Numbered from the stretch's first letter, positions 26,592 through 44,893 are shown. The stretch: 64,000 nt of DNA from a bacterium (GCA_965216315.1 CBDCFN010000016.1:672001-736000), one strand, 5' to 3'. The notes: generated by a model from the letters alone, not told the origin. A program made the numbers and translations.

Positions 26592-26598
26592 GAGGCTG

Positions 26599-26625
26599 GT
26601 ATCGCGGCCCCCTTAAAAAGGTTGC
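26599..26625 (-). promoter_or_regulatory. putative sigma28-like promoter
   Basis: Minus strand GCAACCTT-N11-CGCGATAC, ending 7 nt before GTG 26591. Confidence 0.55.
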
Positions 26626-26843
26626 TAGGAAAACCGTCTGAAGGTCTTGAAATCACTAGGGTTTTCGAATTTTTCTAATGACGCACTGTGCTATGATCTG
26701 TGGATAAGTGAGATAAGATTGCAACACCATTGGGGAATTCGCGTGACGCGCTTTTTTGAGCAGGTGAATCCGGGAGTGGACAGAATTTAGGTGCCGCTTC
26801 CACCCTCCGTAGCTGTGCTACTGCGGAGGACGGGTGCTGCGCC

Positions 26844-27410
26844 CTAAAACAAAGGAAAGAAGTCGAGCCCAACGGCGAGCTGCAAACCAATCACAAGCCC
26901 GCCCTCGGCGTGATTGCCCATGTGTTCCGCATTTCCTTCACCGCCGATGTACAAACCACCCTGAATGTACGGATTGACGCGATTGACGGGGTAATTCATT
27001 GGTTGGGTCCAGGGCCGCCATTGCACTCCGAGGAGAATGCGGCCGCCATGGCGCTGTAGTCCGTTGTCGTATTGTTCGAAGGTATAGCCGAGGCCTGCAA
27101 AGGGCGTGAGCTGGCCGTCATAGGACCAGAGTTCGGCCGTGAAATAGGGCATGTGGCGCATGCCTGCGAGGGTCTTTTCGAAGGTATAGCCCAGGTTAAA
27201 ACCGAGTCCCTCGAAGGAGCCGTCTTGCGGGCTCTCACTGCGGGCGCGTCTGAGTGTCAGCGCGAAGTCAAAACCACCGCCGACGCTTCCATCCAGTACC
27301 TTGGAATCATTGTCGAAATAGCCGAGGTCAAAATTGGCGCTGCCGAGCGCACCGAGGCGAAAGCCGAAATAATTGGTCCTGAGCTGGCAGCCTAGATCTC
27401 CGTCACACAT
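26844..27410 (-). CDS. outer-membrane beta-barrel-like hypothetical protein without signal peptide
   Basis: SD GAGGA upstream of the ATG. Alternating amphipathic strands (GLGFNLGYTF, LTPFAGLGYTF, VNPYIQGGLY) and a C-terminal aromatic end (VGLDFFPLF). Confidence 0.7.
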   Translation of the reverse strand: MCDGDLGCQLRTNYFGFRLGALGSANFDLGYFDNDSKVLDGSVGGGFDFALTLRRARSESPQDGSFEGLGFNLGYTFEKTLAGMRHMPYFTAELWSYDGQLTPFAGLGYTFEQYDNGLQRHGGRILLGVQWRPWTQPMNYPVNRVNPYIQGGLYIGGEGNAEHMGNHAEGGLVIGLQLAVGLDFFPLF

Positions 27411-27433
27411 GGCAATCTACATCCTCTGCTAGT

Positions 27434-27461
27434 GGTTCGGCGGGCCCGAATAAAAAGTTGC
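27434..27461 (-). promoter_or_regulatory. putative sigma28-like promoter
   Basis: Minus strand GCAACTTT-N12-GCCGAACC upstream of ATG 27410. Confidence 0.55.
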
Positions 27462-27496
27462 TAGGGTAATTTTCCGAAATTATTGGAAAATACTGT

Positions 27497-27519
27497 GTAG
27501 GGGCGCTGCTCGCCGTGCC
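27497..27519 (+). repeat. GTAG-type REP-like element
   Basis: GTAGGGGCGCTGCTCGCCGTGCC, related to the copies at 35281 and 37767. Confidence 0.55.
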
Positions 27520-27528
27520 AAATCAATT

Positions 27529-27987
27529 TTACGCGATCTCCCGGAGAATCCGTAAGGATTCGGAAATATGCTTTTTGGCCTGAAGCTGCGAATTAAAGAT
27601 GTGCCGCACCACGCCTTGTTTATCAATGATGTAGGTGACGCGCCCCGGCAAAAGGCCGAAGGTTGACGGGACCCCAAAGCTCTTGCGCACCTTGCCGCCG
27701 GGATCACTCAACAACACGAAGGGGAGGCGATGCTGCGCCGCAAACTCGGTATGGCTTTCCTCGGAATCGGAGCTGATACCGATGACCTCGGCGCCGAGTT
27801 CTTTGAAGTCCTCGTATTGATCGCGAAACGAACAGGCTTCAGCGGTACAGCCAGGCGTATTATCCTTTGGGTAAAAGTAGATCACGACCGCCTGTTGGTT
27901 GCGGTATTGTTGCAACGATACATCTTCACCGTCCGCATTCTTTAATGTGAAGTCCGGAGCGCTGTCGCCGACTTGGAGTTGGGGCAT
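27529..27987 (-). CDS. bcp: peroxiredoxin Bcp/PrxQ
   Basis: GDSAPDFTL, YFYPKDNTPGCTAEACSFRD, GISSD and GRVTYIIDKQG motifs. Start reassigned to ATG 27987 because the longer ORF overlaps the upstream gene. Confidence 0.93.
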   Translation of the reverse strand: MPQLQVGDSAPDFTLKNADGEDVSLQQYRNQQAVVIYFYPKDNTPGCTAEACSFRDQYEDFKELGAEVIGISSDSEESHTEFAAQHRLPFVLLSDPGGKVRKSFGVPSTFGLLPGRVTYIIDKQGVVRHIFNSQLQAKKHISESLRILREIA

Positions 27988-28022
27988 AGCTAATGCGAAA
28001 CAGAATAGAGTGACTTTGTCAA

Positions 28023-28697
28023 TTACAGCCTCAAACGCAATCCCGCCGTGATGCCGTTGGTGACAAGGGGATCGAGGAACTGGTGATTGTATTCGATGAA
28101 GCCGATTAGTAGTGGGTTGTCGCCGGTGATGCGGAACTGGGCGCCGATATCCATATTCAGCCACGGATGGACATTTTGGTCTTCGTAGGTCATCGCCGCG
28201 CCGCCCATGAGGTTGATGTACAGTGAGGCGACATCCGGGTAGGGGAGATGCACGGCAAAACCTCCGCTGACTGCCGTGAACTCATCCGTCGCCAAGATCT
28301 CGAGGCGTGGCATGAAAAAGACTCCGACGGGAGCATTTAAAGCAAAGTCGGGGAGTTGAAAAAGGATGGGCGGAATCAGGTCCGCAAACTGAACATCGAT
28401 GCGGCCGCCGCCATGGATCGCGCCGGTCTGCTCACGCCAGTACAGCATGCCGGCAAAACCCCAGCGGAGTCCCGGCATCAAAGGTCGCGCATGGAGGTCC
28501 GCTGGGGCTGGACGTGTCGTCCATGGCAATTCGGGAAATTCTTCGGGTGTCGAGACTGGAATTTCGCCGGTCTGGCACTGTTCATCCGCCGCCGCAGCAG
28601 GTGCAGCAGCTGGCGGCGTTGTTGCTTGGGGCGTGGGACCACCACTCGATGGTGGTGTTGCCTGCGCGAGCCGTAATGTCAGTTCATTTCCTCCCAT
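28023..28697 (-). CDS. beta-barrel-like hypothetical protein with Pro/Ala-rich N-terminus, no signal peptide
   Basis: SD AAGGAG, 9 nt after the upstream stop. About 8 amphipathic strands ending NGITAGLRLRL. Confidence 0.72.
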   Translation of the reverse strand: MGGNELTLRLAQATPPSSGGPTPQATTPPAAAPAAAADEQCQTGEIPVSTPEEFPELPWTTRPAPADLHARPLMPGLRWGFAGMLYWREQTGAIHGGGRIDVQFADLIPPILFQLPDFALNAPVGVFFMPRLEILATDEFTAVSGGFAVHLPYPDVASLYINLMGGAAMTYEDQNVHPWLNMDIGAQFRITGDNPLLIGFIEYNHQFLDPLVTNGITAGLRLRL

Positions 28698-28706
28698 AGT
28701 TTCTCC

Positions 28707-31700
28707 TTAATCGGCCTCCGGCGTGCGAAAGAGTTGACGGTATTGAAAGCTTACTCCCGTGCGTGGAGTTCCCGAGGACGATTGACGTTGAGTGCGATGA
28801 TAAATGCCGGTCAAAAAGCTCGCGACATCACGAAAGGCCTGTTCGGCAAGGTCAACATCACCGGCTTGAATGGTGTTCAATAAACCTACGCGTAAGACGA
28901 GCGTGCCGCGATTGCCTTCAAGTGGGAGCACCGCCCAATAGCCTTCGTTTTCTTCCATCCCTTGCTCGGAAATATTGGGGCGACGGGCCCAGGTCCACGG
29001 AGCGTAACCGATGTTGCCGACGTGTTGAATGGTGCTCGGGGTTTCGATACGATAGTCGACGACGCGAACGGTGATATCGAGGCTGACATCATAGCAGCTA
29101 CGTCCGCTTTCCGGGTGCTCACAGGCGACTTGAGCCGCACGTGTAAAACGGCTCGAGTAACGATTGAATTCATGTGGTCGACTAAAGACGCGCAAGAGAT
29201 CTTGTGCGGAGATGTCATTGGGGAAGACACTGTAGGCGACACTATCTGTACTATCTGCAGGTGTGCTGTTATGGCCACTCCAACGATGAAAGCGACCCGG
29301 TGCAAAGTTCCTAAAATCAAGGGCTAGCTGTTGGGCTCCGGCTTGAGGGATCCAGGATTGAATATTGGCCCGGATGTCACCGAGATGGTGCAAGAAGCGA
29401 TCCCCGCGACCGATGAAGGGGGCCGGCATGTCTTGTAGGATCAAACGTGCAAAAGAGGTGACGGTTTCCGCACTAAACTGTTGTCGCACCCAAGGAAGAC
29501 TGGCGATGTCGGCAATGGGAATGCGTCCTTGTTGAATGCGTTGATCGGCCCATGATCGCTCGACACCCAGCGTGGAGACCATAAGCTGGGCGACTCGGTC
29601 ACGCTCGCGCTCTGAAACAGTCAGTCGAATTTCTGTAGTCGTAACTTCGCGTCCATCGACTTGCTGCGTGGCACTGTGAAATTCCATAAACTCAGGGGGG
29701 CGACTGGCATCATCCATTCCGGTGAAGGCGTAGCGGAGAGTGCTTACACTTTGAGCATGGCCATTAGGATTGACTTGAGCGGCGGTCCGACCGCGACTTA
29801 ACATTTGATAAAGATTCGAGATGCCGCGGTTTATGCGAAATGCATGGACCCGGGTCGGGTCGCGATTTGGATTCATTAAGGGGATGATCCGTTCACCAAG
29901 TTCGGAGAGCATTTCTCCACGCAGGGCAAACTGGCTGGAATCGACGACTCGCGAAAAATTCTCGACCCGTCCCTGAACGATGTTGGCATCAGTGCCGGTG
30001 AAATCGATCGCTTGCTGTTGCACGAGAAAGGTGCCAACGACGCCGCGTTCGGGGTGGCGTGGATCGCGTACGGGTATCAGCAAGTTTCTTCCTGCAAACA
30101 CTTGAAAGCCGGCATTGCCGCTGTCGTCGCCGGTGACGGGCGCATAAGAAAACGTTTGGACCGCATCTGTCGAGCGTGTGGCTCCGTAGCGACGGCTCTG
30201 AGCGCGCACGTGATAGTTGAAGCGTCCATCAATGGTACCGCGGAAGCTTCCGTCGGCTTGACGACTTGAGGCCGTGACCCATGGGACCCAGTAACGATGA
30301 TCGGCCATGTTTTGTAGCAACGGCAGTATTCTTTGTGGCGGATAGGGGATAAAGGCTGTTGCGGTTTGATTCGCTCCATCCGTTCCTGCCGGCATGGCAC
30401 CTCGATAAGAGGCATCTTCGTCGTCCACGGGAAAGCGCTGCATGATCGTGCTGCGCACCTGAGAATGCCACCAAATTTCTCGGTTGAAGCCAACGAGCTC
30501 TCGGAGATTATGACGGATGTTGCCGAGTGCCAAAAAGAAGCGGTTGCCGCGATTCGTAAAGTAACGACTGGCTGGGTCGCGCGTATCGAAAAAAGCGCGG
30601 ACCAGTGAGCGGACGGTCTGAGGTGGCATGTAGGGAGTACGACGAATGATGTCGCTGATCTGAATGCGGCCGTTTTCAAAGAGGCGTCTCGCTTGGTTGC
30701 GCTCCAGTCCGAAGGCGCGACCGATGGCGGTGATCAATTCATCGTCTCGTCGGTTGAGAATAAATAAGGTATCTTGGGTGGCATTGTAGACAACCGATTC
30801 GCGGGGAGAAGTCGACGGAAGCGGGGGATTCGGATGGAGGCGCCGGATATCAAGGGCCTGCCAGACCTGCTGACGCAGGTTTTGAATTGCGGCCTGCAGC
30901 GGAGTGGCCGTGACCTCCTGTCCGGCGGCACGTTCTCTTGCCTGGGTCTGTTCGATGGTGCGCAAATTAACCGAAAAACGGTGAGTTCTCTCGCCATTCG
31001 CGCGCGGCGGCAGGTTGATATAAATCGATCCACGTCCTGGTGGGAAATATTCGAGTGAACCGGGCAGTCGTGCATTGGCTTCAGTGAGTACTGCGAGGTG
31101 GCGGCGATTCGGATCTTGGAGCTGCTCACGATAACGCGCGTAGGCTTGTCGGTTCCACCGGGTCAAGAAGGCCTGCGTTGAATTCGGCGGTGGCGTCAGT
31201 GGCGGGCTCGCATGTGGCGTGACGGTGAGTTCGATAACACGCGTTTGGGGATTGATACTCAAGGTCATACTTTCAATGCCGGCGCTCGTATCAATATCGG
31301 ATAAGCAATAGAGGCCGCCACCCATGCGAACTTGTCCGGAAGGTATGCGTGAAAGCAGTGAAAAATCGCGCAGACTCACCTGCAGAACGCCTTGAGGCGT
31401 GATGTTAATATCGATGTCGCTGGCACGCGTGGTCGAGCGCAGCATGACAATTAAATCACGGCCAATGTTGGCGTCTAATTCGAGCACGTTAGGCTGGGCA
31501 GCGCCTTCGGTTCTGAAACGAACTCTCCCATCTCTTTGAATCGTCACGCGGTAGCGTTGGCCGTTCGTGCGGTTGTTGACGGTAAAACTTCCGGCCCCGT
31601 GGAGGACGATATCGGGATGGCTGCCCATGGGGTCGCCTGGTAGGGTGCCGGTTACCGGACCGAGTGGGGCGATGGTCCCGCGGATTGTGACGACCGCATC

Positions 31701-31901
31701 ACGTATGTCGACGAGTTGTTGATAGGTATAGGTCTGTGAACCAACGACAGCGACATACTGGTCGCGATCTTGGCGCGGAAAGAAGCGTAAGGCCTGGCGG
31801 GCTTCGGACTGCGTATCAATTTCTCCAGTGCCATGACGGATGACGCGACGGTTGCCACCTGTTTCTTGCCCGCTTCGTCTAATGAGTAGTTCGATCGACA
31901 T
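28707..31901 (-). CDS. 1064-aa Arg-rich hypothetical protein, paralog of the C-terminal half of 20172-26591, two START/SRPBCC-like modules
   Basis: SD AGGAG. Shared blocks FPPGRGSIYINL/IPPGSGDIFVNM, LDIRRLHPNPP/LDVRRALPAPP and ENEGYWAVLPLEG/DNTGWWLIIPAEG. Confidence 0.85.
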   Translation of the reverse strand: MSIELLIRRSGQETGGNRRVIRHGTGEIDTQSEARQALRFFPRQDRDQYVAVVGSQTYTYQQLVDIRDAVVTIRGTIAPLGPVTGTLPGDPMGSHPDIVLHGAGSFTVNNRTNGQRYRVTIQRDGRVRFRTEGAAQPNVLELDANIGRDLIVMLRSTTRASDIDINITPQGVLQVSLRDFSLLSRIPSGQVRMGGGLYCLSDIDTSAGIESMTLSINPQTRVIELTVTPHASPPLTPPPNSTQAFLTRWNRQAYARYREQLQDPNRRHLAVLTEANARLPGSLEYFPPGRGSIYINLPPRANGERTHRFSVNLRTIEQTQARERAAGQEVTATPLQAAIQNLRQQVWQALDIRRLHPNPPLPSTSPRESVVYNATQDTLFILNRRDDELITAIGRAFGLERNQARRLFENGRIQISDIIRRTPYMPPQTVRSLVRAFFDTRDPASRYFTNRGNRFFLALGNIRHNLRELVGFNREIWWHSQVRSTIMQRFPVDDEDASYRGAMPAGTDGANQTATAFIPYPPQRILPLLQNMADHRYWVPWVTASSRQADGSFRGTIDGRFNYHVRAQSRRYGATRSTDAVQTFSYAPVTGDDSGNAGFQVFAGRNLLIPVRDPRHPERGVVGTFLVQQQAIDFTGTDANIVQGRVENFSRVVDSSQFALRGEMLSELGERIIPLMNPNRDPTRVHAFRINRGISNLYQMLSRGRTAAQVNPNGHAQSVSTLRYAFTGMDDASRPPEFMEFHSATQQVDGREVTTTEIRLTVSERERDRVAQLMVSTLGVERSWADQRIQQGRIPIADIASLPWVRQQFSAETVTSFARLILQDMPAPFIGRGDRFLHHLGDIRANIQSWIPQAGAQQLALDFRNFAPGRFHRWSGHNSTPADSTDSVAYSVFPNDISAQDLLRVFSRPHEFNRYSSRFTRAAQVACEHPESGRSCYDVSLDITVRVVDYRIETPSTIQHVGNIGYAPWTWARRPNISEQGMEENEGYWAVLPLEGNRGTLVLRVGLLNTIQAGDVDLAEQAFRDVASFLTGIYHRTQRQSSSGTPRTGVSFQYRQLFRTPEAD

Positions 31902-31913
31902 AATTAAGTGCTC

Positions 31914-34900
31914 CTAGCGCCCTCTTAGTAAGGCCCTCACGTTAATATCGACGGTTAATTCGGATTCTCCCTGCTGGCTCCGGACCCGTGTTTCTGGTGC
32001 GACGCGGACACCACCCGTTTCAAAGCCATGGAGGACTTCTTCCGTCACAATATTCTCAGGGATACGGATGCGCAGCCGGCCATGACGCAGATTGCCGGAG
32101 CCGGAAACGATGGATGTTGTATCGACCGCAGTCCGATTCTGCGATTGAATCTCTCCTGCAGCGTTTCGCTCCGTGATGGTTAGATTGCCTTGTAATCTGT
32201 GACGCCGGCGTGGAATACGGAGACGTTGACGTTCCATGTCAACGCGCGTTGAGATCGAACCATCCATTAAGAGTTCACCTTCTTGCTGAATTGTCGAGCC
32301 GTCTTCGCGGGTTTGGGTTAGATTGATACGAAATCCGCGAATGCGCAGGCGACTGCTTGAACCCGATTCGCTTCCACGGACCGAAAAACGACCGGGAAGG
32401 ACCGTAATGGTGCCACGTGTCTGACCATCGCGAGAGCGATAGGGGATTGAGCGTTGCCGTATCGGCAATGACGCTTCGTAGGAGGCGTGGGGAGATTCGG
32501 ATTGAATTTGTTGGAGGTTGGCGTGACCCCGCAAGTCAATCCGTCCCAGGTTTCGTATGATGGCACGGACTAAAAAAGAGGGGATGCTGACGTCTTGAAT
32601 GCCGCCGATATTGTAATAGCGATCTCCATCTTCGGGCTCACAGCTAGCTGAATCAGCTGTACATGTCACGGCAGAACCATCCCGATAACTGTCGGGATCA
32701 AGCGTACTGGCGATAGCTTCAGAGTTCATAGGGATGACAATTCCTTCCGCGAACAAGCGGGCGCGGGACGGGATCATATCACGAGAATTTTCTCGAGCGG
32801 TACGAACACTGCGGCCGAGGTCCGGAGCTAGGCCACGTAAAAAGTTTTCTATGCCGTTCAGGATGCCGTCGAAGACGGAACGACCGGGCAATTGCCCGAC
32901 AAGATTGTTAAGGTGTCCATTGAGTTCGGCACGAACGACAAACTGGGGCTGACCGGCTTCGTTGACTTCGTCGCGGATGTGCAGGGTGATACCGCTCGCT
33001 AAGGTTTCACCGTTACGCCGAATACGGGCATTATCGATGCGAATGCGGATGCCCCCGACTCGCGGGGCTAGTTCAGGAACGGATGTCTCACTCGTTCTAT
33101 TAAGGAGGGAGAGATCGCCACTGACCTGGCCGCTGATGTTTAGAGTACCGGCCAGGGCCGGGGCGTCAGGAATAGCACTGCGCGGAATCGTTATGCGGAG
33201 GTCGTGCACTTCGGCTGTAAAATGGGCTTGGCTCGTGTAGCCAAGCGGGTGAGTCAAAGGATTGTTGCGTAAGGACGAATTAAGAGTGACTTGAATGTTT
33301 TGTAGCGCCGAGGCGTCACCTCGTAGTTGGACAGCGCCAATATCCGCGTTCAGGGGGCCCAGGAGCGAGAGATCACTTAGCTGTATCATGCGCGTGACAC
33401 GACGTTCTCCGGTCTCACTGTCTTGATAAGGTGTGTCTTGCAGTCTGAGCCCGACAGCGGCATCGCTTTGCAGGGTATTTCCATTCAAGTGACCGGATAA
33501 ATTTAATTGATTGAGGATGTTGAGTGTAACGAGGTCATTCTCAATGCTGAAATCTCCTGAAGTGTGGATTTGTCCGGAGATATTTTGAAAGAGATGTTCT
33601 CCCGAACTTCCCGAAATGTCAGTAAGGTTTACCATCCCATCAATGTTGCCGGAAACGTGATCGACGTGATGCACAGAGGTCGGGTCAATGCGAATATCGG
33701 GAGCGACAAGTAGATGGAAATAGGGAAGCGTGACATGTCCGTCGCTGAAGTGAACAGGAAACGCTTGTGACGGCAGCGCCATGCGGCCGGAAAGATCAAT
33801 GAGGACGCCTTGCTCGTCGGCAGTAAGCTGGGCCTGTGCGGATAGCGGCCGATCTAAAATGCGATCCCCCATTTGCGCACTTTGGATGTCTAAAGATGCC
33901 TGGGCGTTGCCGAGCAGGCGCACATGTCCGCCGCTTAAATAGCTGATTGATAAATTGCTGATGAGTTGGTTCGGGTTGTTACTGCGTTCAACGGTGATGT
34001 CCGGAACGCCCTCAATATTAATGACTTCGATGTTGCCCTCTTGGGTGATGACACCGTGTAGAAATATTTGAGCCAAGACGTCATCGAGTAAGCGCGGTGA
34101 CGGGGGTCCATCGACTTGCGCGGTCGTATTAATGACGCCTTGGATGGGAAGATGAATGCTACGCTCACCCGCGATAGGATCGTGAATGCGGATCTGTTGA
34201 AAATCAAAGGTTGTTAATAGGTTTGCAACTAATTGGGCATGTTCGGCGGGTTGATCGCGACGACGGAGTTGATCACGGAGGCGCGGGTTGTCAAATGCCA
34301 CACTCCAGCTGGCGAGATTGGGACCGTCGCCAAAGTCTATTGTCATGGGTGAGAAACGATAAGGATGCTCGGGGTCCGGTTGAATCTCCATTGTTTGCCC
34401 GGCGATGTTTACGACTCCGTTGGTCCGTGCGCGGAGTAGATAAGGAAGGGCGCTGAGCGGATTCTGCGGGTCGCGAGCGATAAGCGTTGGAGGATTGATA
34501 TGCAGATCGGGATCTTGCGGGCAGCCGCCCGCCGCGGCCATTTCACTGACGTCGAGGCCGAGGCCGATCATAGTCGGGAAATCAAGTGGCGATGGGATGC
34601 CGTCGCGAAGGCGACGTGTTGTCGGAAGATCGTGATCGACTTCCCAATCGCGCTCGTCATCGCAAATCAACTCATCGCGATAATTAAAGCCTAGCGGGAG
34701 TTGTGATAAGAGATTCAGGTCTTGATTGAGTCCGAACGGCCACCACAGTCGATGCGGTTCATCGCTGAACCGACTGCGATGTTCGACCTGTCCGCTGATC
34801 GTCGGTGAGCCGTCGTTGAGAAAAATTTGTTCGGGTCGAAAGAGGATGTTTACCCCAATCCAGCTCGGCATCCAATCGGGATAGATATCCTCGCGCAGGG

Positions 34901-35150
34901 CGCGCAATCGCGCGCCACGGATATTGGCGAGGGGACCGGAGAGATCCAGGGCCCCACATCGGATGCCGCGCGTTGGGGCCTCGATGCGGACAAGGCCTCC
35001 ATTGAGGCCCATTGGGAGCAAATGAGTGTCGACGATGACCGGACGGGCTGGATCGGCGCCGCGTGACGGGACGAAAATGGTCGCGGACCCGCTAAAGACC
35101 CCGTTCAAAGGAGTTGAATTGGTACAGATATTGTTAAGTTCAGGCGGCAT
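31914..35150 (-). CDS. 1078-aa beta-rich hypothetical protein, paralog of the N-terminal half of 20172-26591
   Basis: Shared blocks MTIDFGDGPN/MTVNFGEGNN, GRMALPSQAFP/GRFALPTGAYP, PRVGGIRIRI/PQVGGIRLEL and IQSESPHASY/IQTDSPEAEY. Confidence 0.85.
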   Translation of the reverse strand: MPPELNNICTNSTPLNGVFSGSATIFVPSRGADPARPVIVDTHLLPMGLNGGLVRIEAPTRGIRCGALDLSGPLANIRGARLRALREDIYPDWMPSWIGVNILFRPEQIFLNDGSPTISGQVEHRSRFSDEPHRLWWPFGLNQDLNLLSQLPLGFNYRDELICDDERDWEVDHDLPTTRRLRDGIPSPLDFPTMIGLGLDVSEMAAAGGCPQDPDLHINPPTLIARDPQNPLSALPYLLRARTNGVVNIAGQTMEIQPDPEHPYRFSPMTIDFGDGPNLASWSVAFDNPRLRDQLRRRDQPAEHAQLVANLLTTFDFQQIRIHDPIAGERSIHLPIQGVINTTAQVDGPPSPRLLDDVLAQIFLHGVITQEGNIEVINIEGVPDITVERSNNPNQLISNLSISYLSGGHVRLLGNAQASLDIQSAQMGDRILDRPLSAQAQLTADEQGVLIDLSGRMALPSQAFPVHFSDGHVTLPYFHLLVAPDIRIDPTSVHHVDHVSGNIDGMVNLTDISGSSGEHLFQNISGQIHTSGDFSIENDLVTLNILNQLNLSGHLNGNTLQSDAAVGLRLQDTPYQDSETGERRVTRMIQLSDLSLLGPLNADIGAVQLRGDASALQNIQVTLNSSLRNNPLTHPLGYTSQAHFTAEVHDLRITIPRSAIPDAPALAGTLNISGQVSGDLSLLNRTSETSVPELAPRVGGIRIRIDNARIRRNGETLASGITLHIRDEVNEAGQPQFVVRAELNGHLNNLVGQLPGRSVFDGILNGIENFLRGLAPDLGRSVRTARENSRDMIPSRARLFAEGIVIPMNSEAIASTLDPDSYRDGSAVTCTADSASCEPEDGDRYYNIGGIQDVSIPSFLVRAIIRNLGRIDLRGHANLQQIQSESPHASYEASLPIRQRSIPYRSRDGQTRGTITVLPGRFSVRGSESGSSSRLRIRGFRINLTQTREDGSTIQQEGELLMDGSISTRVDMERQRLRIPRRRHRLQGNLTITERNAAGEIQSQNRTAVDTTSIVSGSGNLRHGRLRIRIPENIVTEEVLHGFETGGVRVAPETRVRSQQGESELTVDINVRALLRGR

Positions 35151-35209
35151 AGATCATGGTCTCCGTGAGGTCTAAGGACCTCTCGTCAAACCATGACAAC
35201 CCACTAACA

Positions 35210-35236
35210 TCTTCGCAGGGGGTAGCTAAAAGTTGC
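35210..35236 (-). promoter_or_regulatory. putative sigma28-like promoter
   Basis: Minus strand GCAACTTT-N11-TGCGAAGA upstream of ATG 35150. Confidence 0.55.
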
Positions 35237-35280
35237 CTCAAAAACCCTGTAATTGTTTGCGAATTTCTTCAAATGGGTCT

Positions 35281-35334: not shown

Positions 35335-35338
35335 GGTA

Positions 35339-37312: not shown

Positions 37313-37361
37313 TGCCAAGGGGAACCAAATCCGTTTAATTTTGTCAACGGAGGGTATTACG

Positions 37362-37769
37362 ATGTCGAAAATGACAATGAAGTATGAAGGGGATCTTGAG
37401 CTGAGCGTGCGCCACGAGCTCTCAGGTGTGGAAATTAAGACAGATGCGCCACCGGACAACCGAGGGAAAGGGCGCAGCTTTTCGCCGACGGATTTGATGG
37501 CGACGTCGATTGCGAGTTGTTATCTGACTTTGATGGGGATAGGCGCTGACGAAATGGGTGTCGATATTACCGGGATGTCCGCGGATGTCGAAAAGATCAT
37601 GGTTAATGAACCGACCCGGCGCATCGGCGAAGTCAAAGTGGATGTCCAGATGCCCGCAGGAATACCGGAAGACAAGCGGGAGGATTTGATTGCTTGGGCC
37701 AAGAAGTGCCCCGTGTGTAAGACCTTGTCGCCGGAATTGAAGGTGACGGTGAATTATAATTGGCCTTAG
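37362..37769 (+). CDS. OsmC family protein
   Basis: [25 protein letters not shown] and KCPV motifs. SD GGAGG at 37349. Confidence 0.9.
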
Positions 37770-37789
37770 GGGCGCTGCTAGCCGCGCCC
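37767..37789 (+). repeat. REP-like element spanning two convergent stop codons
   Basis: TAGGGGCGCTGCTAGCCGCGCCC. Confidence 0.5.
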
Positions 37790-38242
37790 TAATTTAACAA
37801 TCCGATCAAAATGTTTCTTTTCAACTGGCTGCACAGAGAGCCGCATGCCTCTTTTGATGACGAGCATGCCGGAACAGGCGGGGTCTAGTTTAATTTGATC
37901 TAGCGTCACGATCTCCGGAAATTTCTCTACGAATTTCACATCGACCATGTGCCAGATTGGATTTTCAGGACTGGCCTTGGGATCGAGATGGTGAGTGCTA
38001 CCGTCCCAGGCCGTAAAATCGGGATAGCCCTCTTTGCAGACCTCAGCGAGGCCAGCGACGCCGGTAGGCTTGGCGTTGGAATGATAAAACAGTACGCCGT
38101 CGCCTTTCTTCATATCGTCACGCATGAAATTTCGGGCTTGATAATTACGAACCCCGTCCCATTCGCCGCGCTTATCGCGCTTAAGGTCGTCGATGGAGTA
38201 GGAGCCAGGCTCGCTTTTCATTAGCCAATAACGTTTCGGCAT
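37778..38242 (-). CDS. EVE domain protein
   Basis: YWLMKSEP, WDGVRNYQARNFMR, FYHSN and RLSVQPV motifs. Confidence 0.95.
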   Translation of the reverse strand: MPKRYWLMKSEPGSYSIDDLKRDKRGEWDGVRNYQARNFMRDDMKKGDGVLFYHSNAKPTGVAGLAEVCKEGYPDFTAWDGSTHHLDPKASPENPIWHMVDVKFVEKFPEIVTLDQIKLDPACSGMLVIKRGMRLSVQPVEKKHFDRIVKLGRG

Positions 38243-38257
38243 GCCCTTAAATCTCCC

Positions 38258-38284
38258 ACAACTTCGCGAACGTCAAGGCGATAA
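38258..38284 (+). promoter_or_regulatory. putative sigma28-like promoter
   Basis: ACAACTTC-N11-GGCGATAA, 9 nt before ATG 38294. No SD. Confidence 0.55.
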
Positions 38285-38293
38285 GCCCGGCAT

Positions 38294-39484
38294 ATGGTGC
38301 TGAATGTCCTCAATGGGATGCTTTCCCTCCAGCAATTCGGTCAAGCGGCGCTCGTTTCCGGTCTCTTGATTCGCAACGGATCCCATAGCGCTCAAGCGCG
38401 TGATTTGGCACAAGACAAGGTGTGGCTGTCCGAATCGGCCGAGGCCATCGCAGCGGATCCTGATGCCGACTTAGGTGAGCTCGTCGGGGAGCTCAATGCC
38501 CGGGCCTTGGACAAAATTGCCACGGTAGTTGCGATGGCCCGGCCGCAGCTGGAGCGGATACCGGCGGGGGTTCATATTATTGGAGAAGAACAAAAGGCCC
38601 GGTGGCGAGAATTTCCAGCGTTTGACTTAGCCGCGACGCCGGTTAGTTATCGTCAGTATGTTGATCTTGCCAAGGTTTGCGGCCTGATGTTGCGACGTCC
38701 TCACGACTTGGTCAAAAGCGATACGCATCCGATCGTCAATGTGTCATGGTTTAGTGCCCATGAATACGCGGCGTGGTTGACCGTACTGACCGGCGAGACT
38801 TATCGGATGCCGACCGAAGCGGAGTGGGAACGTGCGGCGCGTGGCAATCCGGTTCTCCTTAATGACCGTACGGACGAAGCGAAGGCAGAAGAATTCTTTC
38901 GAAATCACTGGGACAACCATTTTGAGAACGGTTTCATTTGGGATGAACGGAGTCTCTTGCGAGAGAAGGCACAGATTATTCATGATGATGAGCAGCTCAG
39001 TCGATTTATTGAGGTGGGTATTCAAGTCGGGGCGTATCATGTGTATGGGACCGATAATGGCAGTCTCGATGGCGTGCGTGCCTTGTGGAGCAGTCACTGT
39101 CCACTTACCAGTGGCTGTTACGGAGCGAATCCGTTCGGGCTGTACGACATGTGCGGCAATACGTACGAGATGACCGTCGGTGAAGAGGAGCAGCCCGTGC
39201 TCAAGTCGGGCTATTTTAAGCAGCAAGATCACTGGGAGCTGCGCGCCGCCTCTCGGATCGATGTTGCAAAGATACATTGGCATCTTGCCCAGCGCGCGCA
39301 CCACATCCAATTGCTGCGTTCTTGGCTCTATCTCCCGCAATATGCTCGCTTCGAGCATGATGAATTGGCGATTCCGCCGATTAGTTTTCGCCTGTTGCGT
39401 GAAACAGCGCCGGTACCCGAGGCCATGAATAGGGCCCTCCTGGCCGTGACCGAAGGGACGAAGCGCTCCAACTGGAGTCGTTAG
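38294..39484 (+). CDS. formylglycine-generating enzyme (FGE/SUMF1) domain protein with N-terminal extension
   Basis: HPIVNVSWFSA, YRMPTEAEWERAARG, NPFGLYDMCGN and SFRL motifs. Confidence 0.88.
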   Translation: MVLNVLNGMLSLQQFGQAALVSGLLIRNGSHSAQARDLAQDKVWLSESAEAIAADPDADLGELVGELNARALDKIATVVAMARPQLERIPAGVHIIGEEQKARWREFPAFDLAATPVSYRQYVDLAKVCGLMLRRPHDLVKSDTHPIVNVSWFSAHEYAAWLTVLTGETYRMPTEAEWERAARGNPVLLNDRTDEAKAEEFFRNHWDNHFENGFIWDERSLLREKAQIIHDDEQLSRFIEVGIQVGAYHVYGTDNGSLDGVRALWSSHCPLTSGCYGANPFGLYDMCGNTYEMTVGEEEQPVLKSGYFKQQDHWELRAASRIDVAKIHWHLAQRAHHIQLLRSWLYLPQYARFEHDELAIPPISFRLLRETAPVPEAMNRALLAVTEGTKRSNWSR

Positions 39485-39519
39485 TTTTCAAGGATTTCAG
39501 TCCCTTCCCGAATAAGTGC

Positions 39520-39547
39520 GAAACAATTTATCCCATTCGGGCGATGA
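39520..39547 (+). promoter_or_regulatory. putative sigma28-like promoter (variant)
   Basis: GAAACAAT-N12-GGCGATGA upstream of SD GGAGG (39559) and TTG 39572. Confidence 0.4.
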
Positions 39548-39571
39548 TGCCGGTATCGGGAGGGTTTCGTA

Positions 39572-41701
39572 TTGCTTTTTGCGGGTTCAGTGCCAATTTC
39601 AACTCTTTGCGCCTCAGCCTCGACGGCGCAACTTGCCGCCAGTATTGGACTTGTCGCCAATATGACCCAAGCGGCAAATAATCAAGAGCTCGTGACAATT
39701 TATGCAAATCTTCCCCGGAACTTAGAAGATTGGCGCTCGCATGGCCTTGAGGGAGATGAATTAACGGCGGTCGCAGCAATGATAGGGCAGGAACCGGAGG
39801 GACGCCTGTTGGCAGATCGGTTGCTGGCCTTGGAAGGGCGGCTCTGGGGGGAGATTGTTCAAGGACGCCAACTCGATGAACCGCTCCGGCAGGTGCTTCA
39901 TCAACGTTTGAATCGCGAGCTGACGACGAAGCGGAATTTTGTCGAAAAGGCCTCCCGGTGGATACGCCAGCCCTGGCTCAAGGCCTTCATGTATCATGCG
40001 CGCGTCTCATCGCTTCCCTCGACAGGCAATGTCCATTGGACTCCTTTGGTGCAATCCTTTGAGTTGGAACGTGAACTAGGGCGCCCTGTTTTTCTCAAGC
40101 TTGAAAGCGAACAGTCGGTTGGGTCTTTTAAGAATCGCGGTGCCACGAATCTTTTGATTCATCAAATGATTGATCTTATGCTCGCTGGTGTCGACCCGCG
40201 TGATGTCAGCGTCGTGACGGCCAGTCACGGCAATGCGGCGCAAGGCGTTGTTCAAGCGGCACATAATTTGGGGATCCCCAATGTTATTGTCTATCTTCCG
40301 AAAAACGCCTCGCGACTTAAGCGGCGTCAACTTATTGATCAGGGTGCGGAAGTGCGGCTCCAAGGTCAGACTTTCGAAGAGGCGGAAGATAGGGCTCGTG
40401 AGGAGAGTGCGCCGTCGCATCTGTCTCTTTTTGTGCCGGCATTTCGTCACGATTTGATTGCCGAAGGACAGGGCTCGATCGGCTTAGAGATTGAAGCCGA
40501 TATGAAGGCCTTCGGGCATAATGAGTTTGCTGTCATTGCCGGGGCCGGTGGGCTTGGTTTGTTGAGCGGTTTATCCGTTGCACTCAGTGCCAATCATTCC
40601 ATTTTCGGCGTTGAATCTGAATTGCTCGCATTTGCTTCTCGCTCTTTTGCTGTCGGTGAGGTCGTGCAGCCGGCAGACATTAATCATATTGATACGGTTG
40701 CGGATGGCAGCGCGTTGCTGCGTATCGACGGACAACTCTTTGATCGCTATGTGAAACCAGGAGTGCAAGACATTGTTGCCATTCCGGAACCGGAGATTCA
40801 GGGGGCGATTGCAGCACTCCATGATTTCAATGTGATGGCCGAGGGCTCCGCAGCGGCCACCGTGGGGGCGATGCTTTTCGGTGGCCTTAAGCTAGAGCGT
40901 TATGGGGTTCCGAGTGATCTTCCCGTTGTGTTTGTCGTTTCCGGAAAAAATATCGATGAAGAGGTAAGGGCGCCGGTGTTGGCGAAGTATCGGCAAGGTG
41001 ATTGGCGCCGTCTTGAGCGTGAGGCACGTACCGAAGATTTGAACCGCTATCTCACCCATCATGGCTTTGTCAGGGATAATGTGGTCTTGCCGCTGATTGA
41101 TGAGGTTAAGCCTTATCATTATATAAGGACACTCAATTTTGTTGATTTTCTTGCGTGTCGGCTCCCTGAAGGCTGGGACCTCATCGATGCCTTTCGCGAA
41201 CTTGACTTCGGGCCTTTTGTTGACGTGAAAGGGCCGCGTGCAACGTTTCGGAGTATGGGTGAGTTTTCGACGCGACGTTACGAGGAAGACGCTCACCAAT
41301 TAGGCAACCGTCTTTATGCGCTGTTTCATCCGGTTGCGAATCGCGCGAACATTGTCATTCAGGCGGGTGCGGTTGCAGCAAGTCGTCCAGAGGTCCTAGG
41401 GACGTTGATTGAGGAATTGGAACAGCAGCCAGGCACCCGGATTAAAACGTGGATTTCGCGTCTGGCAGGGGAAGCCCGCGTGATCGAGCACTATGCGCGT
41501 TACCCGGAGTGGCAGCTGCGCCTGGCCCCTGAGCTGTCTGAGCGTGAACGGCACAGCAAGATGAGGCGTCTACTTGATGTAGTCGATCGACTGAATAGGG
41601 CCATCGCGCAGTTGTTGCCTCACTTTGAGTCGGATACCAACACGCAATTGTTCCTGCTCTCGGCACTCAATCAACCCATCCCCGTACCGATAAAAAAATA
41701 A
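39572..41701 (+). CDS. PLP-dependent threonine/serine dehydratase-like protein with long N- and C-terminal extensions
   Basis: TPL..S..L, FLKLE...GSFKNRGA (PLP lysine), TASHGNAAQG, GQGSIGLEI and VSGKNID motifs. The tail does not resemble ACT domains by eye. Confidence 0.85.
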   Translation: MLFAGSVPISTLCASASTAQLAASIGLVANMTQAANNQELVTIYANLPRNLEDWRSHGLEGDELTAVAAMIGQEPEGRLLADRLLALEGRLWGEIVQGRQLDEPLRQVLHQRLNRELTTKRNFVEKASRWIRQPWLKAFMYHARVSSLPSTGNVHWTPLVQSFELERELGRPVFLKLESEQSVGSFKNRGATNLLIHQMIDLMLAGVDPRDVSVVTASHGNAAQGVVQAAHNLGIPNVIVYLPKNASRLKRRQLIDQGAEVRLQGQTFEEAEDRAREESAPSHLSLFVPAFRHDLIAEGQGSIGLEIEADMKAFGHNEFAVIAGAGGLGLLSGLSVALSANHSIFGVESELLAFASRSFAVGEVVQPADINHIDTVADGSALLRIDGQLFDRYVKPGVQDIVAIPEPEIQGAIAALHDFNVMAEGSAAATVGAMLFGGLKLERYGVPSDLPVVFVVSGKNIDEEVRAPVLAKYRQGDWRRLEREARTEDLNRYLTHHGFVRDNVVLPLIDEVKPYHYIRTLNFVDFLACRLPEGWDLIDAFRELDFGPFVDVKGPRATFRSMGEFSTRRYEEDAHQLGNRLYALFHPVANRANIVIQAGAVAASRPEVLGTLIEELEQQPGTRIKTWISRLAGEARVIEHYARYPEWQLRLAPELSERERHSKMRRLLDVVDRLNRAIAQLLPHFESDTNTQLFLLSALNQPIPVPIKK

Positions 41702-41728
41702 GCAACCTTTGGTAGGGCCCTCCGAAGA
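41702..41728 (+). promoter_or_regulatory. putative sigma28-like promoter
   Basis: GCAACCTT-N11-TCCGAAGA upstream of SD GGAGG and ATG 41776. Confidence 0.55.
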
Positions 41729-41775
41729 AGGACTGGGTTATTAATCGAGCCATCTAGGATGGAGGGTCATCGGGC

Positions 41776-43878
41776 ATGACGGGTCTATTTTCGGCAATTT
41801 CCACGACATCATTTATTGGGGCATCAAGTTCAGTGCTCGCGTCGGCTGCAATGCCGGGGTCCACTCGCTATCATCTGCCCCGCACAGGTTATTTCGAGTC
41901 ACGCCGGGGAATGCCACTCCATACCTTAGCAGGCTACGCGGAGGCGGAACGCTTGGTTGGTTTGGTTGGTACGAATCTTGGAACCCGTATGTTCGTGCCG
42001 TTTCGGCCGCCATTGGAATATTCGCCGTACGGAGCGGGAGTTGTTGAACGGATACGGGAGAGACCGGACCTAGCGTCGGAGCTGACGGGTCGCTGGGATC
42101 GCGCCATCGTTGTCTCACCGGGGACAGCTATTCTAGGGCTAGGAGAAGCGCCTCGCAACAAGACAGGTTTGATCCTCGCCGAAGCCGGTATGCCGATCAT
42201 GGCGGGTAAAGCAAAGTTTTTTCTACAAAGTGCCGGTGTTAATACGGTTGCTCAATGTCTTCACGCCCATATTACCGAAGGGCAATATCAGCAGTTAGAA
42301 AGGATGAAGGCGGAAGCTCGGAAGACGAAGGACGCCGACAAGCTGTGGCAGGCGGAAGATCTAGAAAGACGTTGGCGTGCGGAGAAATTTGCCGAGATCG
42401 TGATCGCGCTGGCATGCAATTATGGCTTTATCAATATCGAAGATGCGCAGGGTAAAGATCTGCCGATTATTCTTGGGGCGTTAGAATGTCTGAAAGGTCA
42501 ATGTGCCGTTTGGTCCGATGATATGCAGGGGACCGGGGTGATCACGGCGGCGGGTGTTCTTGCTTGGGCGGACCAGACCGATCGTGATGTGACGCAGATT
42601 CGCGTTATTCTCATGGGCGCTGGGGCCGGTTCGATGGGGGTCTATAATGAATTGTTGAATCACGGGGTGAAGGCCGAGAACATCCTTGTCACGGACAGTC
42701 GAGGTGTCTTGCATGAGGGACGGCGGGATGTTGACGGCGATCCGTTTAAAGAGAAGTTGCGCATGGGCATTGATGCCGGCACGACGGTTGAGGCCTTTGC
42801 CAAGGGGGCGGATGCGCTGATTAATTTGGGTGTACCCGAGAGTCTTACCGACGATCTCGTGTGGACGCGTCGAATTACCGAAAGCCTGGCGAAGAATCCG
42901 TTGTTTGCGCCGATGACCAATCCGGAACCGGGAATAACGCCGGATATGCTGCGGGGGGTGAGAGAGGATGCTTTTTATGCGAGCGGCAATCAGCAGTATG
43001 TAAATCCGTTTAATAATTTTACCGCTTTCGGGCAAATAGGCGCCGGATCTCTGATTGCAAAGGCCGGTGGTGTCGGGGCTGGAATGACGGTGGCCGCGGC
43101 TCACGGAATTCTTGAAGTGGCTAAGCTGGGTGCGCCGGAATGGCTGCGCGATCGCCTCCCAAAAGAACAGAGGCAATACGGAAGACATTGGCTGGTGCCC
43201 CATCCCTTAGATATTCGGCTCATTGCTCACGAAGCCGGTGCCGTGGCCAAGGCGGCGGCACGGGAGGGTCTTGCAACCGGATTTGTTGATAACCCGACCA
43301 AGGCAGACTACGAAGCATTCGACGCCAAGGTTGATAGGCAAGTAAGGCTCCGTACCAGACATGTTCGTACTATGCGCGATAAAGCGGCAGAGGAAGGAAG
43401 AAATTACTTGCAAGAAAATTACGAAGATCGTTACGCGCCGTTTACGTTGCCGGGTCGGCAACAATCCGTCTATGATGTTGCGCCAGAGATTCCGTTTGAT
43501 GAATTCGAACGTCATGCGCGGGCGATGGGTGTAAAGGAAGAGCGCTGGCAACAATTCCTGAACGGCGACGGTGAATTAAAGGGGAACGCGCTGACCGAGA
43601 TTTTAAACCTCCTCGTTACCAAGATGAAGAAAGATGCCAAGGAATTTGCAGGGGTAGAGCGAGATTGGGAACGAGAACTTGAGATTATCGTGCAAATTGC
43701 CCAGATTTATCCGGCTTTAGGGATGGCCTTGGCCTTGCGACGCTCGCGGGTTCGCAATTATGAAACGACGGGTTCCACGGTCTTTCATCGCGAGCGGGTC
43801 ATTCACGTCGTGATGCGCGAAGTGCGTGAGGCCCGCAAATCCATCTACGAATTTGCGGGGGTTCCCGATACTCCCTGA
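41776..43878 (+). CDS. divergent NAD(P)-dependent malic enzyme-like protein
   Basis: GTAILGLG, PIMAGKA, INIEDA, DDMQGTG, GAGAG, TDSRG, NPEP and NN..AF motifs. Has a helical insertion and terminal extensions. Confidence 0.85.
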   Translation: MTGLFSAISTTSFIGASSSVLASAAMPGSTRYHLPRTGYFESRRGMPLHTLAGYAEAERLVGLVGTNLGTRMFVPFRPPLEYSPYGAGVVERIRERPDLASELTGRWDRAIVVSPGTAILGLGEAPRNKTGLILAEAGMPIMAGKAKFFLQSAGVNTVAQCLHAHITEGQYQQLERMKAEARKTKDADKLWQAEDLERRWRAEKFAEIVIALACNYGFINIEDAQGKDLPIILGALECLKGQCAVWSDDMQGTGVITAAGVLAWADQTDRDVTQIRVILMGAGAGSMGVYNELLNHGVKAENILVTDSRGVLHEGRRDVDGDPFKEKLRMGIDAGTTVEAFAKGADALINLGVPESLTDDLVWTRRITESLAKNPLFAPMTNPEPGITPDMLRGVREDAFYASGNQQYVNPFNNFTAFGQIGAGSLIAKAGGVGAGMTVAAAHGILEVAKLGAPEWLRDRLPKEQRQYGRHWLVPHPLDIRLIAHEAGAVAKAAAREGLATGFVDNPTKADYEAFDAKVDRQVRLRTRHVRTMRDKAAEEGRNYLQENYEDRYAPFTLPGRQQSVYDVAPEIPFDEFERHARAMGVKEERWQQFLNGDGELKGNALTEILNLLVTKMKKDAKEFAGVERDWERELEIIVQIAQIYPALGMALALRRSRVRNYETTGSTVFHRERVIHVVMREVREARKSIYEFAGVPDTP

Positions 43879-43977
43879 TCTGAGATAGGTCGCTTAAACC
43901 CTTTGCTGCCAAGGCTTTCCCGCCGAACCCCCTAATTCCTTGCTAATTGCCCAGATTTTGGGCACCATGCCGCGGCT

Positions 43978-44775
43978 ATGAATATTAAAGACACACTTGC
44001 CCTCAGGGCCTTTGGCTTAGTGAAAATCCCATTACTGTTCTATATTGGACCTCGTGTTCAGAAATTAACGAGCAAGTCATGTGAAATCACGATTCCCCTT
44101 AACTATTTTACCAAGAATCATCTCGGTTGCATGTACTTCGGTGTCCTCGCGGCAGGCGCTGACTGTGCCGGTGGCCTGATGGGGATGGAGGCGATCCGTC
44201 GCAGTGGTAAAAAGGTTGATCTTCTTTTTAAAGATTTTAAGGCCGAATTCCTTAGGCGTGCCGAAGGGGATGTGACCTTTAAGTGTGTCGACGGCGCCAA
44301 GATCCAAAAACAAGTTAAGGATGTCATTAAGAGCGGAAGGCGCATTAATCGCACCGTTCAAATTATCGCGACGACACCTAAAGTGTCTGGTAATGAGCCG
44401 GTTGCGATTTTCGACTTAACGCTTTCTCTTAAAGCGCGTGCTGAAAAGAAAAAACCGGTTGCCTCCAAGAAAAAGGCTGTTTCCAAAAAGAAGCCTGCTA
44501 AGAAAAAGGCCGTCGCTAAGAAGAAACCGACTAAGAAAAAGGCTGCGGTTAAAAAGAAAGCGACGAAGAAAAAGACTGTTGCTAAGAAGAGACCCACCAT
44601 TAAGAAGAAGGCTGCAGCAAAGAAGAGGCCGGTAGCTAAGAAGAAGACGGTAGCCAAGAAGAAACCGGTCGCGAAGAAAAAGCCGGCTAAGAAGAAGGTG
44701 ACGCAGTTGCGCCGGGCCCCTGCGAAGGCAGCCCGTAAGGCTGCTCGTAAAGCCCCGCGTAAAAAAGCAGCTTAG
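43978..44775 (+). CDS. hotdog-fold thioesterase (DUF4442/PaaI-like) fused to a Lys/Ala-rich histone H1-like tail
   Basis: TKNHLGCMYFG..AAGADCAGG and FLRRAEGDVTF motifs. The last ~110 aa are KKK(P/A/T)(V/A)A repeats. Confidence 0.85.
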   Translation: MNIKDTLALRAFGLVKIPLLFYIGPRVQKLTSKSCEITIPLNYFTKNHLGCMYFGVLAAGADCAGGLMGMEAIRRSGKKVDLLFKDFKAEFLRRAEGDVTFKCVDGAKIQKQVKDVIKSGRRINRTVQIIATTPKVSGNEPVAIFDLTLSLKARAEKKKPVASKKKAVSKKKPAKKKAVAKKKPTKKKAAVKKKATKKKTVAKKRPTIKKKAAAKKRPVAKKKTVAKKKPVAKKKPAKKKVTQLRRAPAKAARKAARKAPRKKAA

Positions 44776-44857
44776 CTAGCAGTAATAGCTGAAGATTAGC
44801 CTTATTGCCTGATGTTTACGGGTGTGAACAAAAAATCGTTGCAGTTTTAAAAAATAC

Positions 44858-44884
44858 TCAACAAGTCGAATATGATGTCGATGA
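44858..44884 (+). promoter_or_regulatory. putative sigma28-like promoter
   Basis: TCAACAAG-N11-GTCGATGA, 9 nt before ATG 44894. No SD. Confidence 0.45.
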
Positions 44885-44893
44885 TGCCCTTCG

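Follow-up and report, generated by a model that had tools for sequence, protein, structure and literature searches.

The stretch analysed here, referred to as the window, comprises 64,000 nucleotides of a bacterial assembly (GCA_965216315.1, CBDCFN010000016.1:672001-736000; C16:672001-736000 of genome G000). In this window a two-box sequence motif recurs directly upstream of seven transcription units. Our analysis indicates that the motif is a promoter type that is probably read by an alternative, FliA/WhiG-family sigma factor, which is encoded in a non-flagellar type III secretion system (T3SS) cluster and would drive a global gene programme. The initial annotation had already recognised a sigma-28-type promoter, and this is confirmed, with a variant -35 box. 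Its view of a local regulon of seven units has to be given up: the motif marks approximately 270 transcription units (368 of the 2569 genes, including tightly packed downstream genes), among them regulators, signalling and metabolic genes and the operon of the sigma factor and the T3SS itself.

The genome measures 2.96 Mb in 16 contigs and is rated 98.3% complete. Its 2569 genes were predicted with a simple hexamer-based caller made for this analysis. A two-block matrix, refined by iteration over the whole genome, settled on c(G/A)CAACtttt-N9-11-gCCGATAA in the 1519 upstream regions. The -10 box (gCCGATAA) is of the sigma-28 type, i.e. GCCGATAA-type, but the -35 box is GCAACTTT and not TAAA. 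With a threshold of 12.2 (the 99th percentile of shuffles) 273 of the 1519 upstream regions contain a site, whereas about 15 are expected by chance, so the motif is enriched over shuffled DNA genome-wide, as had been predicted. The boxes are separated by N16 in 202 sites, N17 in 40, N18 in 29 and N15 in 2. When all dyads of the form 4-mer/gap/4-mer are counted in the same regions, CAAC-N16-CGAT ranks first, with 124 regions against 1 in the shuffle. The strict pattern CAAC[CT]TT-N12/13-CGA[AT] has 95 matches in the genome, 68 of them in non-coding DNA (8.5% of the genome), and 58 of these 68 are located at most 150 nucleotides upstream of a gene on the same strand. As a control, half-sites placed at wrong spacings yield just 6 of 104 and 6 of 107 intergenic matches.

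The distance between motif and gene is also constrained. Measured from the last A of the -10 octamer, the start codon shows a sharp peak at 6 to 10 nucleotides, which holds 56 of the 273 motif regions. Such constant positioning adds to the case for promoters. For the genes that start at 26591, 38294 and 44894 of the window, near-leaderless mRNAs had been proposed; their distances of 7, 9 and 9 nucleotides fall inside the genome-wide peak. About a fifth of the motif units is probably transcribed as leaderless mRNAs, and the position of the -10 box suggests that transcription would begin on the start codon itself.

To characterise the genes behind the motif, we scanned C16:1-800000 for Pfam families, covering 69 of the 74 motif first genes (5 straddled tile borders) and 75 controls drawn at random from the 288 eligible of 304 non-motif first genes in the same region. 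At E<=1e-6 no family is found for 49 of the 69 motif first genes against 19 of the 75 controls (Fisher p = 5e-8), which agrees with the expected enrichment before orphans. Classical signal peptides are also less frequent behind the motif, again as anticipated: Sec-like N-termini occur in 38 of 273 first genes against 259 of 1246. Besides orphans, the motif set includes S8 and M23 peptidases, a hybrid histidine kinase, a GGDEF protein, a Ser/Thr kinase, LamG lipoproteins and the metabolic genes panD, ribBA and bioB. Three regulators of the DUF4423 (TIGR02147) type are located behind a motif copy as well (C16:97715-98599, -; 105078-105926, +; 284396-285247, +).

The sigma factors of this genome are RpoD, an RpoH-like protein, two extracytoplasmic function (ECF) factors and one FliA/WhiG-like protein, next to rpoN. 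The FliA/WhiG-like gene (C16:350583-351410) is found outside the window and inside the non-flagellar T3SS cluster. Its product carries PF04542 and PF04545, hence sigma-70 regions 2 and 4, and the closest solved relatives are WhiG (6pfj, E 3e-24) and FliA (9wsf, 6pmi, 1rp3). The neighbours on one side are SctV, FHA/YscD-like proteins and a 335-residue lipoprotein of the SctJ/FliF family, directly followed by the sigma gene; on the other side are FliG_C-like, FliH/SctL, ATPase, YscO/FliJ, FliK-like, FliM, FliN, FliO, FliP, FliQ and FliR genes. On the hrcV model, which has a cut-off of 692 bits, SctV scores 806, and it stays under the FlhA cut-off. With Pfam matches for the other components, the export core and the sorting platform (SctV, J, L, N, O, Q, R, S, T, U) are represented, SctU/FlhB being located apart from the cluster at C16:805026-806048. 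The sctV gene stands 24 nucleotides behind secA and argJ (C16:335145-341218, +), separate from the remaining T3SS genes. Both a cognate-looking sigma-28 paralog and a non-Sec export system, as the initial annotation had called for, are thus present in a single locus.

Several parts of a complete injection machine were not recognised. The T3SS cluster contains no secretin (two secretin-domain genes are found far from it) and no recognised needle family. Two orphan proteins of 601 and 611 residues, encoded beside TPR proteins, could be translocators. In 12 of 12 loci the stop codon of the sigma gene is overlapped or immediately followed by a gene for a protein of 153 to 185 residues (162 in G000); in the alignment of these proteins (A2; L047:2325-2813 and its counterparts L048-L058) a conserved C-terminal motif VNRG.LQME ... 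ELLAMQAG is seen, which may be reminiscent of T3SS inner-rod or FliE-type proteins. An anti-sigma role considered for this protein was for that reason not favoured. Further small conserved genes of the sigma operon encode 151 and 119 residues.

Conservation was assessed in 60 relatives from 23 families of one class, giving 61 genomes when G000 is included. Public assemblies of relatives go under the name 'Deltaproteobacteria bacterium', with the label UBA10199 in the isolate names of some. The T3SS-linked sigma factor is found in all 60 relatives at 56-84% identity (61 of 61 with G000), and an SctV ortholog in 60 of 61, often at about 10 kb from the sigma gene. The motif exceeds its reversed control in 61 of 61 genomes, with 52 against 6 in G000 and 15 against 7 in the weakest case, G013. 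In all 12 loci inspected a motif copy precedes the small gene that opens the sigma operon. Together with the short intergenic gaps this means that the sigma factor probably drives itself and the T3SS genes downstream.

The same comparison bears on the possibility that one of the two ECF factors reads the motif, as the initial annotation had offered for an alternative. Many ECF promoters have AAC in the -35 box, as this motif has, and a motif-driven operon is located upstream of ECF2. However, neither ECF gene is directly preceded by a motif and the -10 box is the sigma-28 GCCGATAA. At E<=1e-10, moreover, ECF1-like genes occur in 26 and ECF2-like genes in 36 of the 61 genomes, against 61 of 61 for the motif, and ECF-like genes are missing from motif-rich genomes, for example G004, G012 and G040. 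As neither factor is conserved where the motif is, this alternative fails, and we consider it extremely improbable.

Flagellated relatives allow the T3SS-linked factor to be compared with a true flagellar paralog. A flagellin is found in 7 of the 61 genomes. These seven also possess a further, higher-scoring FHIPEP gene, which is adjoined by a second FliA-like gene with 25-32% identity to the T3SS-linked sigma query. For the recognition helix of region 4.2 we extracted 19 sequences, of which 6 proved to be open reading frames on the wrong strand and were set aside. The helix reads LSKSW(T/V)SRLHAR in 10 of 10 readable orthologs of the T3SS-linked factor and (T)E(S/A)R(V/I)SQIH in 3 of 3 readable flagellar paralogs, i.e. 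KSWTSR against ESRVSQ. The GCAAC box in place of TAAA is in line with this changed helix. Flagellin genes are preceded by T(C/T)AAGTT-N11-CCGT in 7 of 7 cases and by CAAC...CGATA in 0 of 7 (G057, G031, G022, G032, G014, G045, G029). These flagellin promoters (L121-L127) are themselves sigma-28-like, with CCGT in the -10 box where CCGA is otherwise found. Judged from these sequences, two classes of sigma-28-type promoter thus coexist in the lineage, distinct in the -35 as well as the -10 box, and would be matched by the two paralogs.

Another view would hold that the motif belongs to an ordinary flagellar FliA regulon, or that it is the housekeeping promoter of the lineage. Its -10 box is like that of FliA promoters, it is the strongest dyad in the genome, and a large non-flagellar regulon under FliA is known from Bdellovibrio bacteriovorus (PMC3627812). 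For the flagellar variant the difficulty is that no flagellin and no rod/hook C-terminal domain was detected in G000 (at the completeness given above), and that the flagellated relatives keep a separate FliA with a different flagellin promoter. For the housekeeping variant it is that RpoD scores 730 bits, above the NCBIfam RpoD equivalog cut-off of 555, and that the housekeeping genes in the control sample (S16, EF-Tu, RpoB, SecA, SSB and HU) are without the motif, as had been foreseen; the same sample also includes NuoA. Promoters of the pattern TTGAC-N16-18-TAnnnT are found in 56 of the 1246 motif-free upstream regions against 10 in shuffled ones, that of S16 among them. Since such TTGACA-type promoters exist, for instance before S16 and SSB, the sigma-28-type motif is not the housekeeping promoter. 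Both variants taken together are very unlikely, and the T3SS-linked sigma factor is retained as the best candidate for reading the motif.

The sigma gene itself might be under the control of another promoter class. A sigma-54-type box (TGGCAY-N5-CTGCA) is found approximately 50 nucleotides before it in G000 and in 7 of 11 relatives, hence in 8 of 12 loci. Boxes of this type are located at C16:350531, 364601 and 366259 (+), the latter two before orphan genes just past the T3SS operon. The same region contains a sigma-54 activator with an FHA domain (C16:372422-373819, -), with a PEGA-domain Ser/Thr kinase nearby. This suggests a cascade in which sigma-54 and the FHA-domain activator would switch on the T3SS-linked sigma factor.

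Combining these observations, the T3SS-linked sigma factor would have kept the sigma-28 -10 box (gCCGATAA) while reading a GCAAC -35 box in place of TAAA. It would drive some 270 units, including its own operon, which would run on into the T3SS genes, and most of the products would be lineage-specific proteins. A number of points weigh against this reading. The sigma factor reaches 132.9 bits on the NCBIfam model TIGR02479 (FliA/WhiG), below the cut-off of 189.6, though this is nonetheless its best-scoring family. No FlgM-like anti-sigma factor was found in a Pfam search at E<=1. The 61 genomes are kin, so that 61 of 61 does not amount to 61 independent tests, and with a simple home-made gene caller individual start codons can be wrong. 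Finally, that this factor binds this motif is something we infer from family, genomic location, autoregulation and co-occurrence.

A second feature of the regulon concerns the N-termini of its proteins, of which many are free of charged residues over a considerable length (hereafter N-tag). Among leaderless motif genes, 44 of 62 have no Asp, Glu, Lys or Arg before residue 19; this is true of 56 of 211 motif genes with leaders and of 111 of 2296 others. Once strongly hydrophobic N-termini are removed, the N-tag is carried by 100 of the 273 motif first genes and by 15 of the 95 genes downstream of them, compared to 50 of 2201 others (odds ratio 25). The N-tag is real and strongly linked to the regulon. 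Among the 115 tagged proteins of motif units the first charged residue has a median position of 29. Over the best stretch of 9 residues their hydropathy amounts to 1.66 ± 0.33 and does not depart from the proteome mean, whereas 370 classical signal peptides reach 3.08 ± 0.31. Of the 115, 44 contain an LLAAS-like motif, which is found in 4% of the classical signals and in 2% of the remaining proteins, and 70 have proline or an aliphatic side chain at the third or fourth position. Within the first 50 residues serine is raised (11.3% against 6.4%) and cysteine is at half the proteome mean. In the charge-free N-termini asparagine and glutamine are over-represented and aspartate, glutamate, lysine and arginine under-represented, a bias that suggests a constraint on the charge of the protein.

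BLAST sorts the 115 tagged proteins into 97 clusters, of which 88 have a single member. This rules out a paralog family and shows the N-tag to be a portable feature. That it is a by-product of leaderless mRNA is unlikely, given the 56 of 211 leadered motif genes that are also charge-free and the amino acid bias just described. Neither is it a trait of the whole class: in a 400-kb sample of G057 just 2 of 25 motif genes carry it, and 1 of 13 in G003. It recurs in G001, a genome of the same family, in 5 of 14 open reading frames downstream of a motif.

The initial annotation had suggested that the regulon encodes cargo for delivery into a host or prey cell. Any link of the products to secretion, such delivery included, we can only infer. 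In a more specific form this idea makes the approximately 115 N-tagged proteins substrates of the T3SS, with the tag as export signal and with co-expression by the machine's own sigma factor. The sigma gene is located inside the T3SS cluster, and the tag closely follows the promoter (100 of 273 against 50 of 2201, odds ratio 25), is found on unrelated proteins, is serine-rich and is unlike a hydrophobic signal peptide. In enzymes it sits on extensions of 100 to 150 residues that the housekeeping paralogs are without, and it recurs in G001 (5 of 14) and on orthologs in G051 and G010. Against it, the tag is rare behind the motif in G003 and G057 (1 of 13 and 2 of 25), even though these genomes possess the T3SS along with its sigma factor. 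The best candidates for true substrates, the 601- and 611-residue proteins encoded beside TPR chaperone-like genes and conserved in G057, are without the tag and begin with acidic residues. Among the tagged proteins are signalling proteins of an ordinary cytoplasmic kind, namely a hybrid histidine kinase and a GGDEF protein, and the cluster contains no secretin and no recognisable needle gene. Overall, we regard a T3SS effector regulon of this kind as possible but rather unlikely, and export of the N-tagged proteins by the T3SS is likewise a tentative proposal.

The same within-genome association with the promoter, and the same spread over unrelated carriers, would be expected if the N-tag were another signal unrelated to the T3SS (for targeting, turnover or other export), acquired in this family within a sigma-28-type developmental regulon. 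The tag being family-level, whereas the T3SS is class-wide, argues for such a signal, as does the presence of signalling proteins among the carriers. No candidate machinery for it was found, however, and a constraint on charge is also compatible with export signals. This explanation is a serious contender, which we nevertheless hold to be slightly short of an even chance.

Returning to the window, all seven sites of the initial annotation are found where it placed them; they are intergenic, point at the named gene and score 15.4-23.1. The matrix yields 33 matches in the window against 5.85 in shuffles. Of these, 22 lie within one giant gene (window 1165-19848) and are spurious: 18 are near-identical copies in tandem repeats and 4 are weak matches elsewhere in the gene. 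This tandem-repeat gene (+) encodes 6,227 residues with a repeat period of about 99/198 nucleotides, and it is directly preceded by a cyclic di-GMP-I riboswitch (70.6 bits, window 996-1082, +). No sigma-28-type motif is found before this riboswitch, where the best score is -2.9. The same scan gives no above-threshold site before acs, EVE, rtcB or osmC, in agreement with what had been noted. For bcp, which had been listed with them, the claim holds in so far as there is no intergenic site; a weak match (14.7, window 28188-28218, -) does precede an alternative long start. This weak match sits inside the coding 3' end of a 224-residue gene, 24 nucleotides before an alternative GTG, and use of that GTG would extend bcp (AhpC/TSA; 27529-28164, -) by 60 N-terminal residues.

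Three of the seven promoters are on the minus strand. The one at 26597-26627 (score 20.1, intergenic; -35 GCAACC, -10 CGCGATAC) has the GTG of its gene 7 nucleotides past the -10 octamer, and to judge from this layout the mRNA is probably leaderless. The gene (20172-26591, -) encodes a 2139-residue orphan that starts with MGDG, has no Pfam family and is without the N-tag. A gene for 2132 residues at C16:1960441-1966839 (+) likewise starts with MGDG and likewise stands 6 to 10 nucleotides behind a motif copy. The promoter at 27432-27463 (-, score 17.7) has a 23-nucleotide leader with a Shine-Dalgarno-like GAGGA and precedes a 188-residue orphan (26844-27410, -) with no Pfam family and no signal peptide; feature matches of 0.91-0.94 to PagL and outer membrane beta-barrel clusters in the atlas are a lead only. 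The promoter at 35208-35238 (-, score 20.1) has a leader of 59 nucleotides and serves a probable operon of three orphan genes (31914-35150, 28707-31901 and 28023-28697; together 28023-35150, -). These are arranged head to tail with gaps of 12 and 9 nucleotides and encode 1078, 1064 and 224 residues without a Pfam family. The description of giant proteins as 'START-like' could not be confirmed: no Pfam family is found and the atlas yields just a weak lead. For the 1078-residue protein a YdbH-like match at 0.76 is again no more than a lead.

The remaining four promoters are on the plus strand, and their genes (starts 38294, 39572, 41776 and 44894) are the four of the seven that carry the N-tag. 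Three of the tagged proteins are enzymes with N-terminal extensions of 100 to 150 residues. The highest-scoring promoter (38256-38286, score 23.1) has the ATG of its gene 9 nucleotides past the -10 octamer, and a leaderless mRNA is again probable from the position. The product (38294-39484, 396 residues) has an extension of about 95 residues, followed by an FGE-sulfatase-like domain (PF03781) from residue 98. The promoter at 39518-39549 (score 17.0) contains a GAAAC variant of the -35 box. It precedes a protein of 709 residues (39572-41701) with an extension of about 150 residues and a pyridoxal phosphate-dependent (PALP) domain, PF00291, from residue 154. Orthologs of this protein in G051 and G010 have kept the motif, the leaderless layout and the charge-free start, whereas the housekeeping PALP paralog is without N-tag, motif and leaderless layout. 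The promoter at 41700-41730 (score 20.5, leader of about 47 nucleotides) belongs to a protein of 700 residues (41776-43878), in which the extension is followed by malic-enzyme-like domains (PF00390 and PF03949) from residue 109. The weakest promoter (CTCAACAAG ... GTCGATGA; 44856-44886, score 15.4) has the ATG at 44894, 9 nucleotides past the -10 octamer, and precedes a tagged orphan of 779 residues (44894-47233) without a Pfam family.

Summarizing, one short motif marks approximately one seventh of the genes in an uncultured lineage, mostly orphans, as a co-regulated programme tied to a secretion machine. If the assignment holds, this is a natural case of two paralogous sigma factors separated by one recognition helix and both promoter boxes. 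The N-tag in the window's family in addition proposes about 115 candidate cargo proteins. Taken furthest, and with considerable doubt on our side, a lineage of candidate-phylum level with small genomes and mostly without flagella might have turned a duplicated flagellar sigma-28 into the dedicated master regulator of a secretin-less T3SS, with the N-tag (about 29 residues, about 115 proteins) as export signal in the window's family. If true, this would provide the first readable substrate catalogue for a 'needleless' T3SS.

Parts of this arrangement are familiar from other bacteria. In Pseudomonas syringae the T3SS-encoded ECF factor HrpL drives both the machine and dispersed effectors via the hrp box, with the sigma-54 activators HrpR/S above it, and effectors have been found by combining the hrp box with a rule on N-terminal composition. 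The logic is similar here: a T3SS-linked alternative sigma factor, one promoter box and probably a sigma-54 step upstream. The differences are that HrpL is an ECF factor whereas ours belongs to the sigma-28 family, and that export of the products is a proposal in our case. Chlamydial sigma-28 is a FliA-family factor in a non-flagellated bacterium with a T3SS and serves a developmental gene set, but it has a small set of known targets and a canonical TAAA-type -35 box, against about 270 units and a new -35 box here. In polar flagellates (Vibrio, Pseudomonas, Campylobacter) flagellar cascades run from sigma-54 to sigma-28. The sigma-54-type box before the sigma-28-type gene (8 of 12 loci), rpoN and the FHA-domain activator resemble these cascades, though the output here is not a flagellum.

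The closest precedent for the size of the regulon is Bdellovibrio. For B. bacteriovorus HD100, Karunker et al. (2013, PMC3627812) report the sequence TTAAG-N16-CCGATA in 92 of 140 attack-phase promoters, with FliA in the role of a global regulator of the life stage. As in that report, a sigma-28-type promoter has spread to many non-flagellar and largely uncharacterised genes (PMC3627812). There, however, the factor is described as the flagellar FliA of a flagellated cell, whereas here it is a separate paralog in a T3SS cluster of a genome in which no flagellin was found, with a GCAAC -35 box, a changed recognition helix and products mostly without classical signal peptides.

With respect to the secretion machine, the present cluster is similar to the 'needleless' T3SS* of Myxococcus xanthus (PMC12075869) and to the early-branching 'Myxo' T3SS (Abby and Rocha 2012, PMC3459982). 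As far as these accounts describe them, all would have sorting platform and export gate with no recognisable secretin, needle or translocon in the cluster, and the T3SS*/'Myxo' systems and the present cluster come from former deltaproteobacterial lineages. Neither paper mentions 'sigma' in its main text, and PMC3459982 does not mention 'FliA'. The effectors of the M. xanthus system are given as unknown (PMC12075869), so that a testable list of candidates would be useful. In the literature on UBA10199 and on non-flagellar T3SS with sigma-28, judged mostly from abstracts, we found no description of the present system, and no report of a sigma-28 paralog in a non-flagellar T3SS that has its own -35 specificity and coexists with a canonical FliA in flagellated relatives. 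Bdellovibrio offers a precedent for large sigma-28 regulons, and plant pathogens for sigma factors dedicated to a T3SS; what appears to be new here is a sigma-28 paralog encoded within the T3SS cluster.

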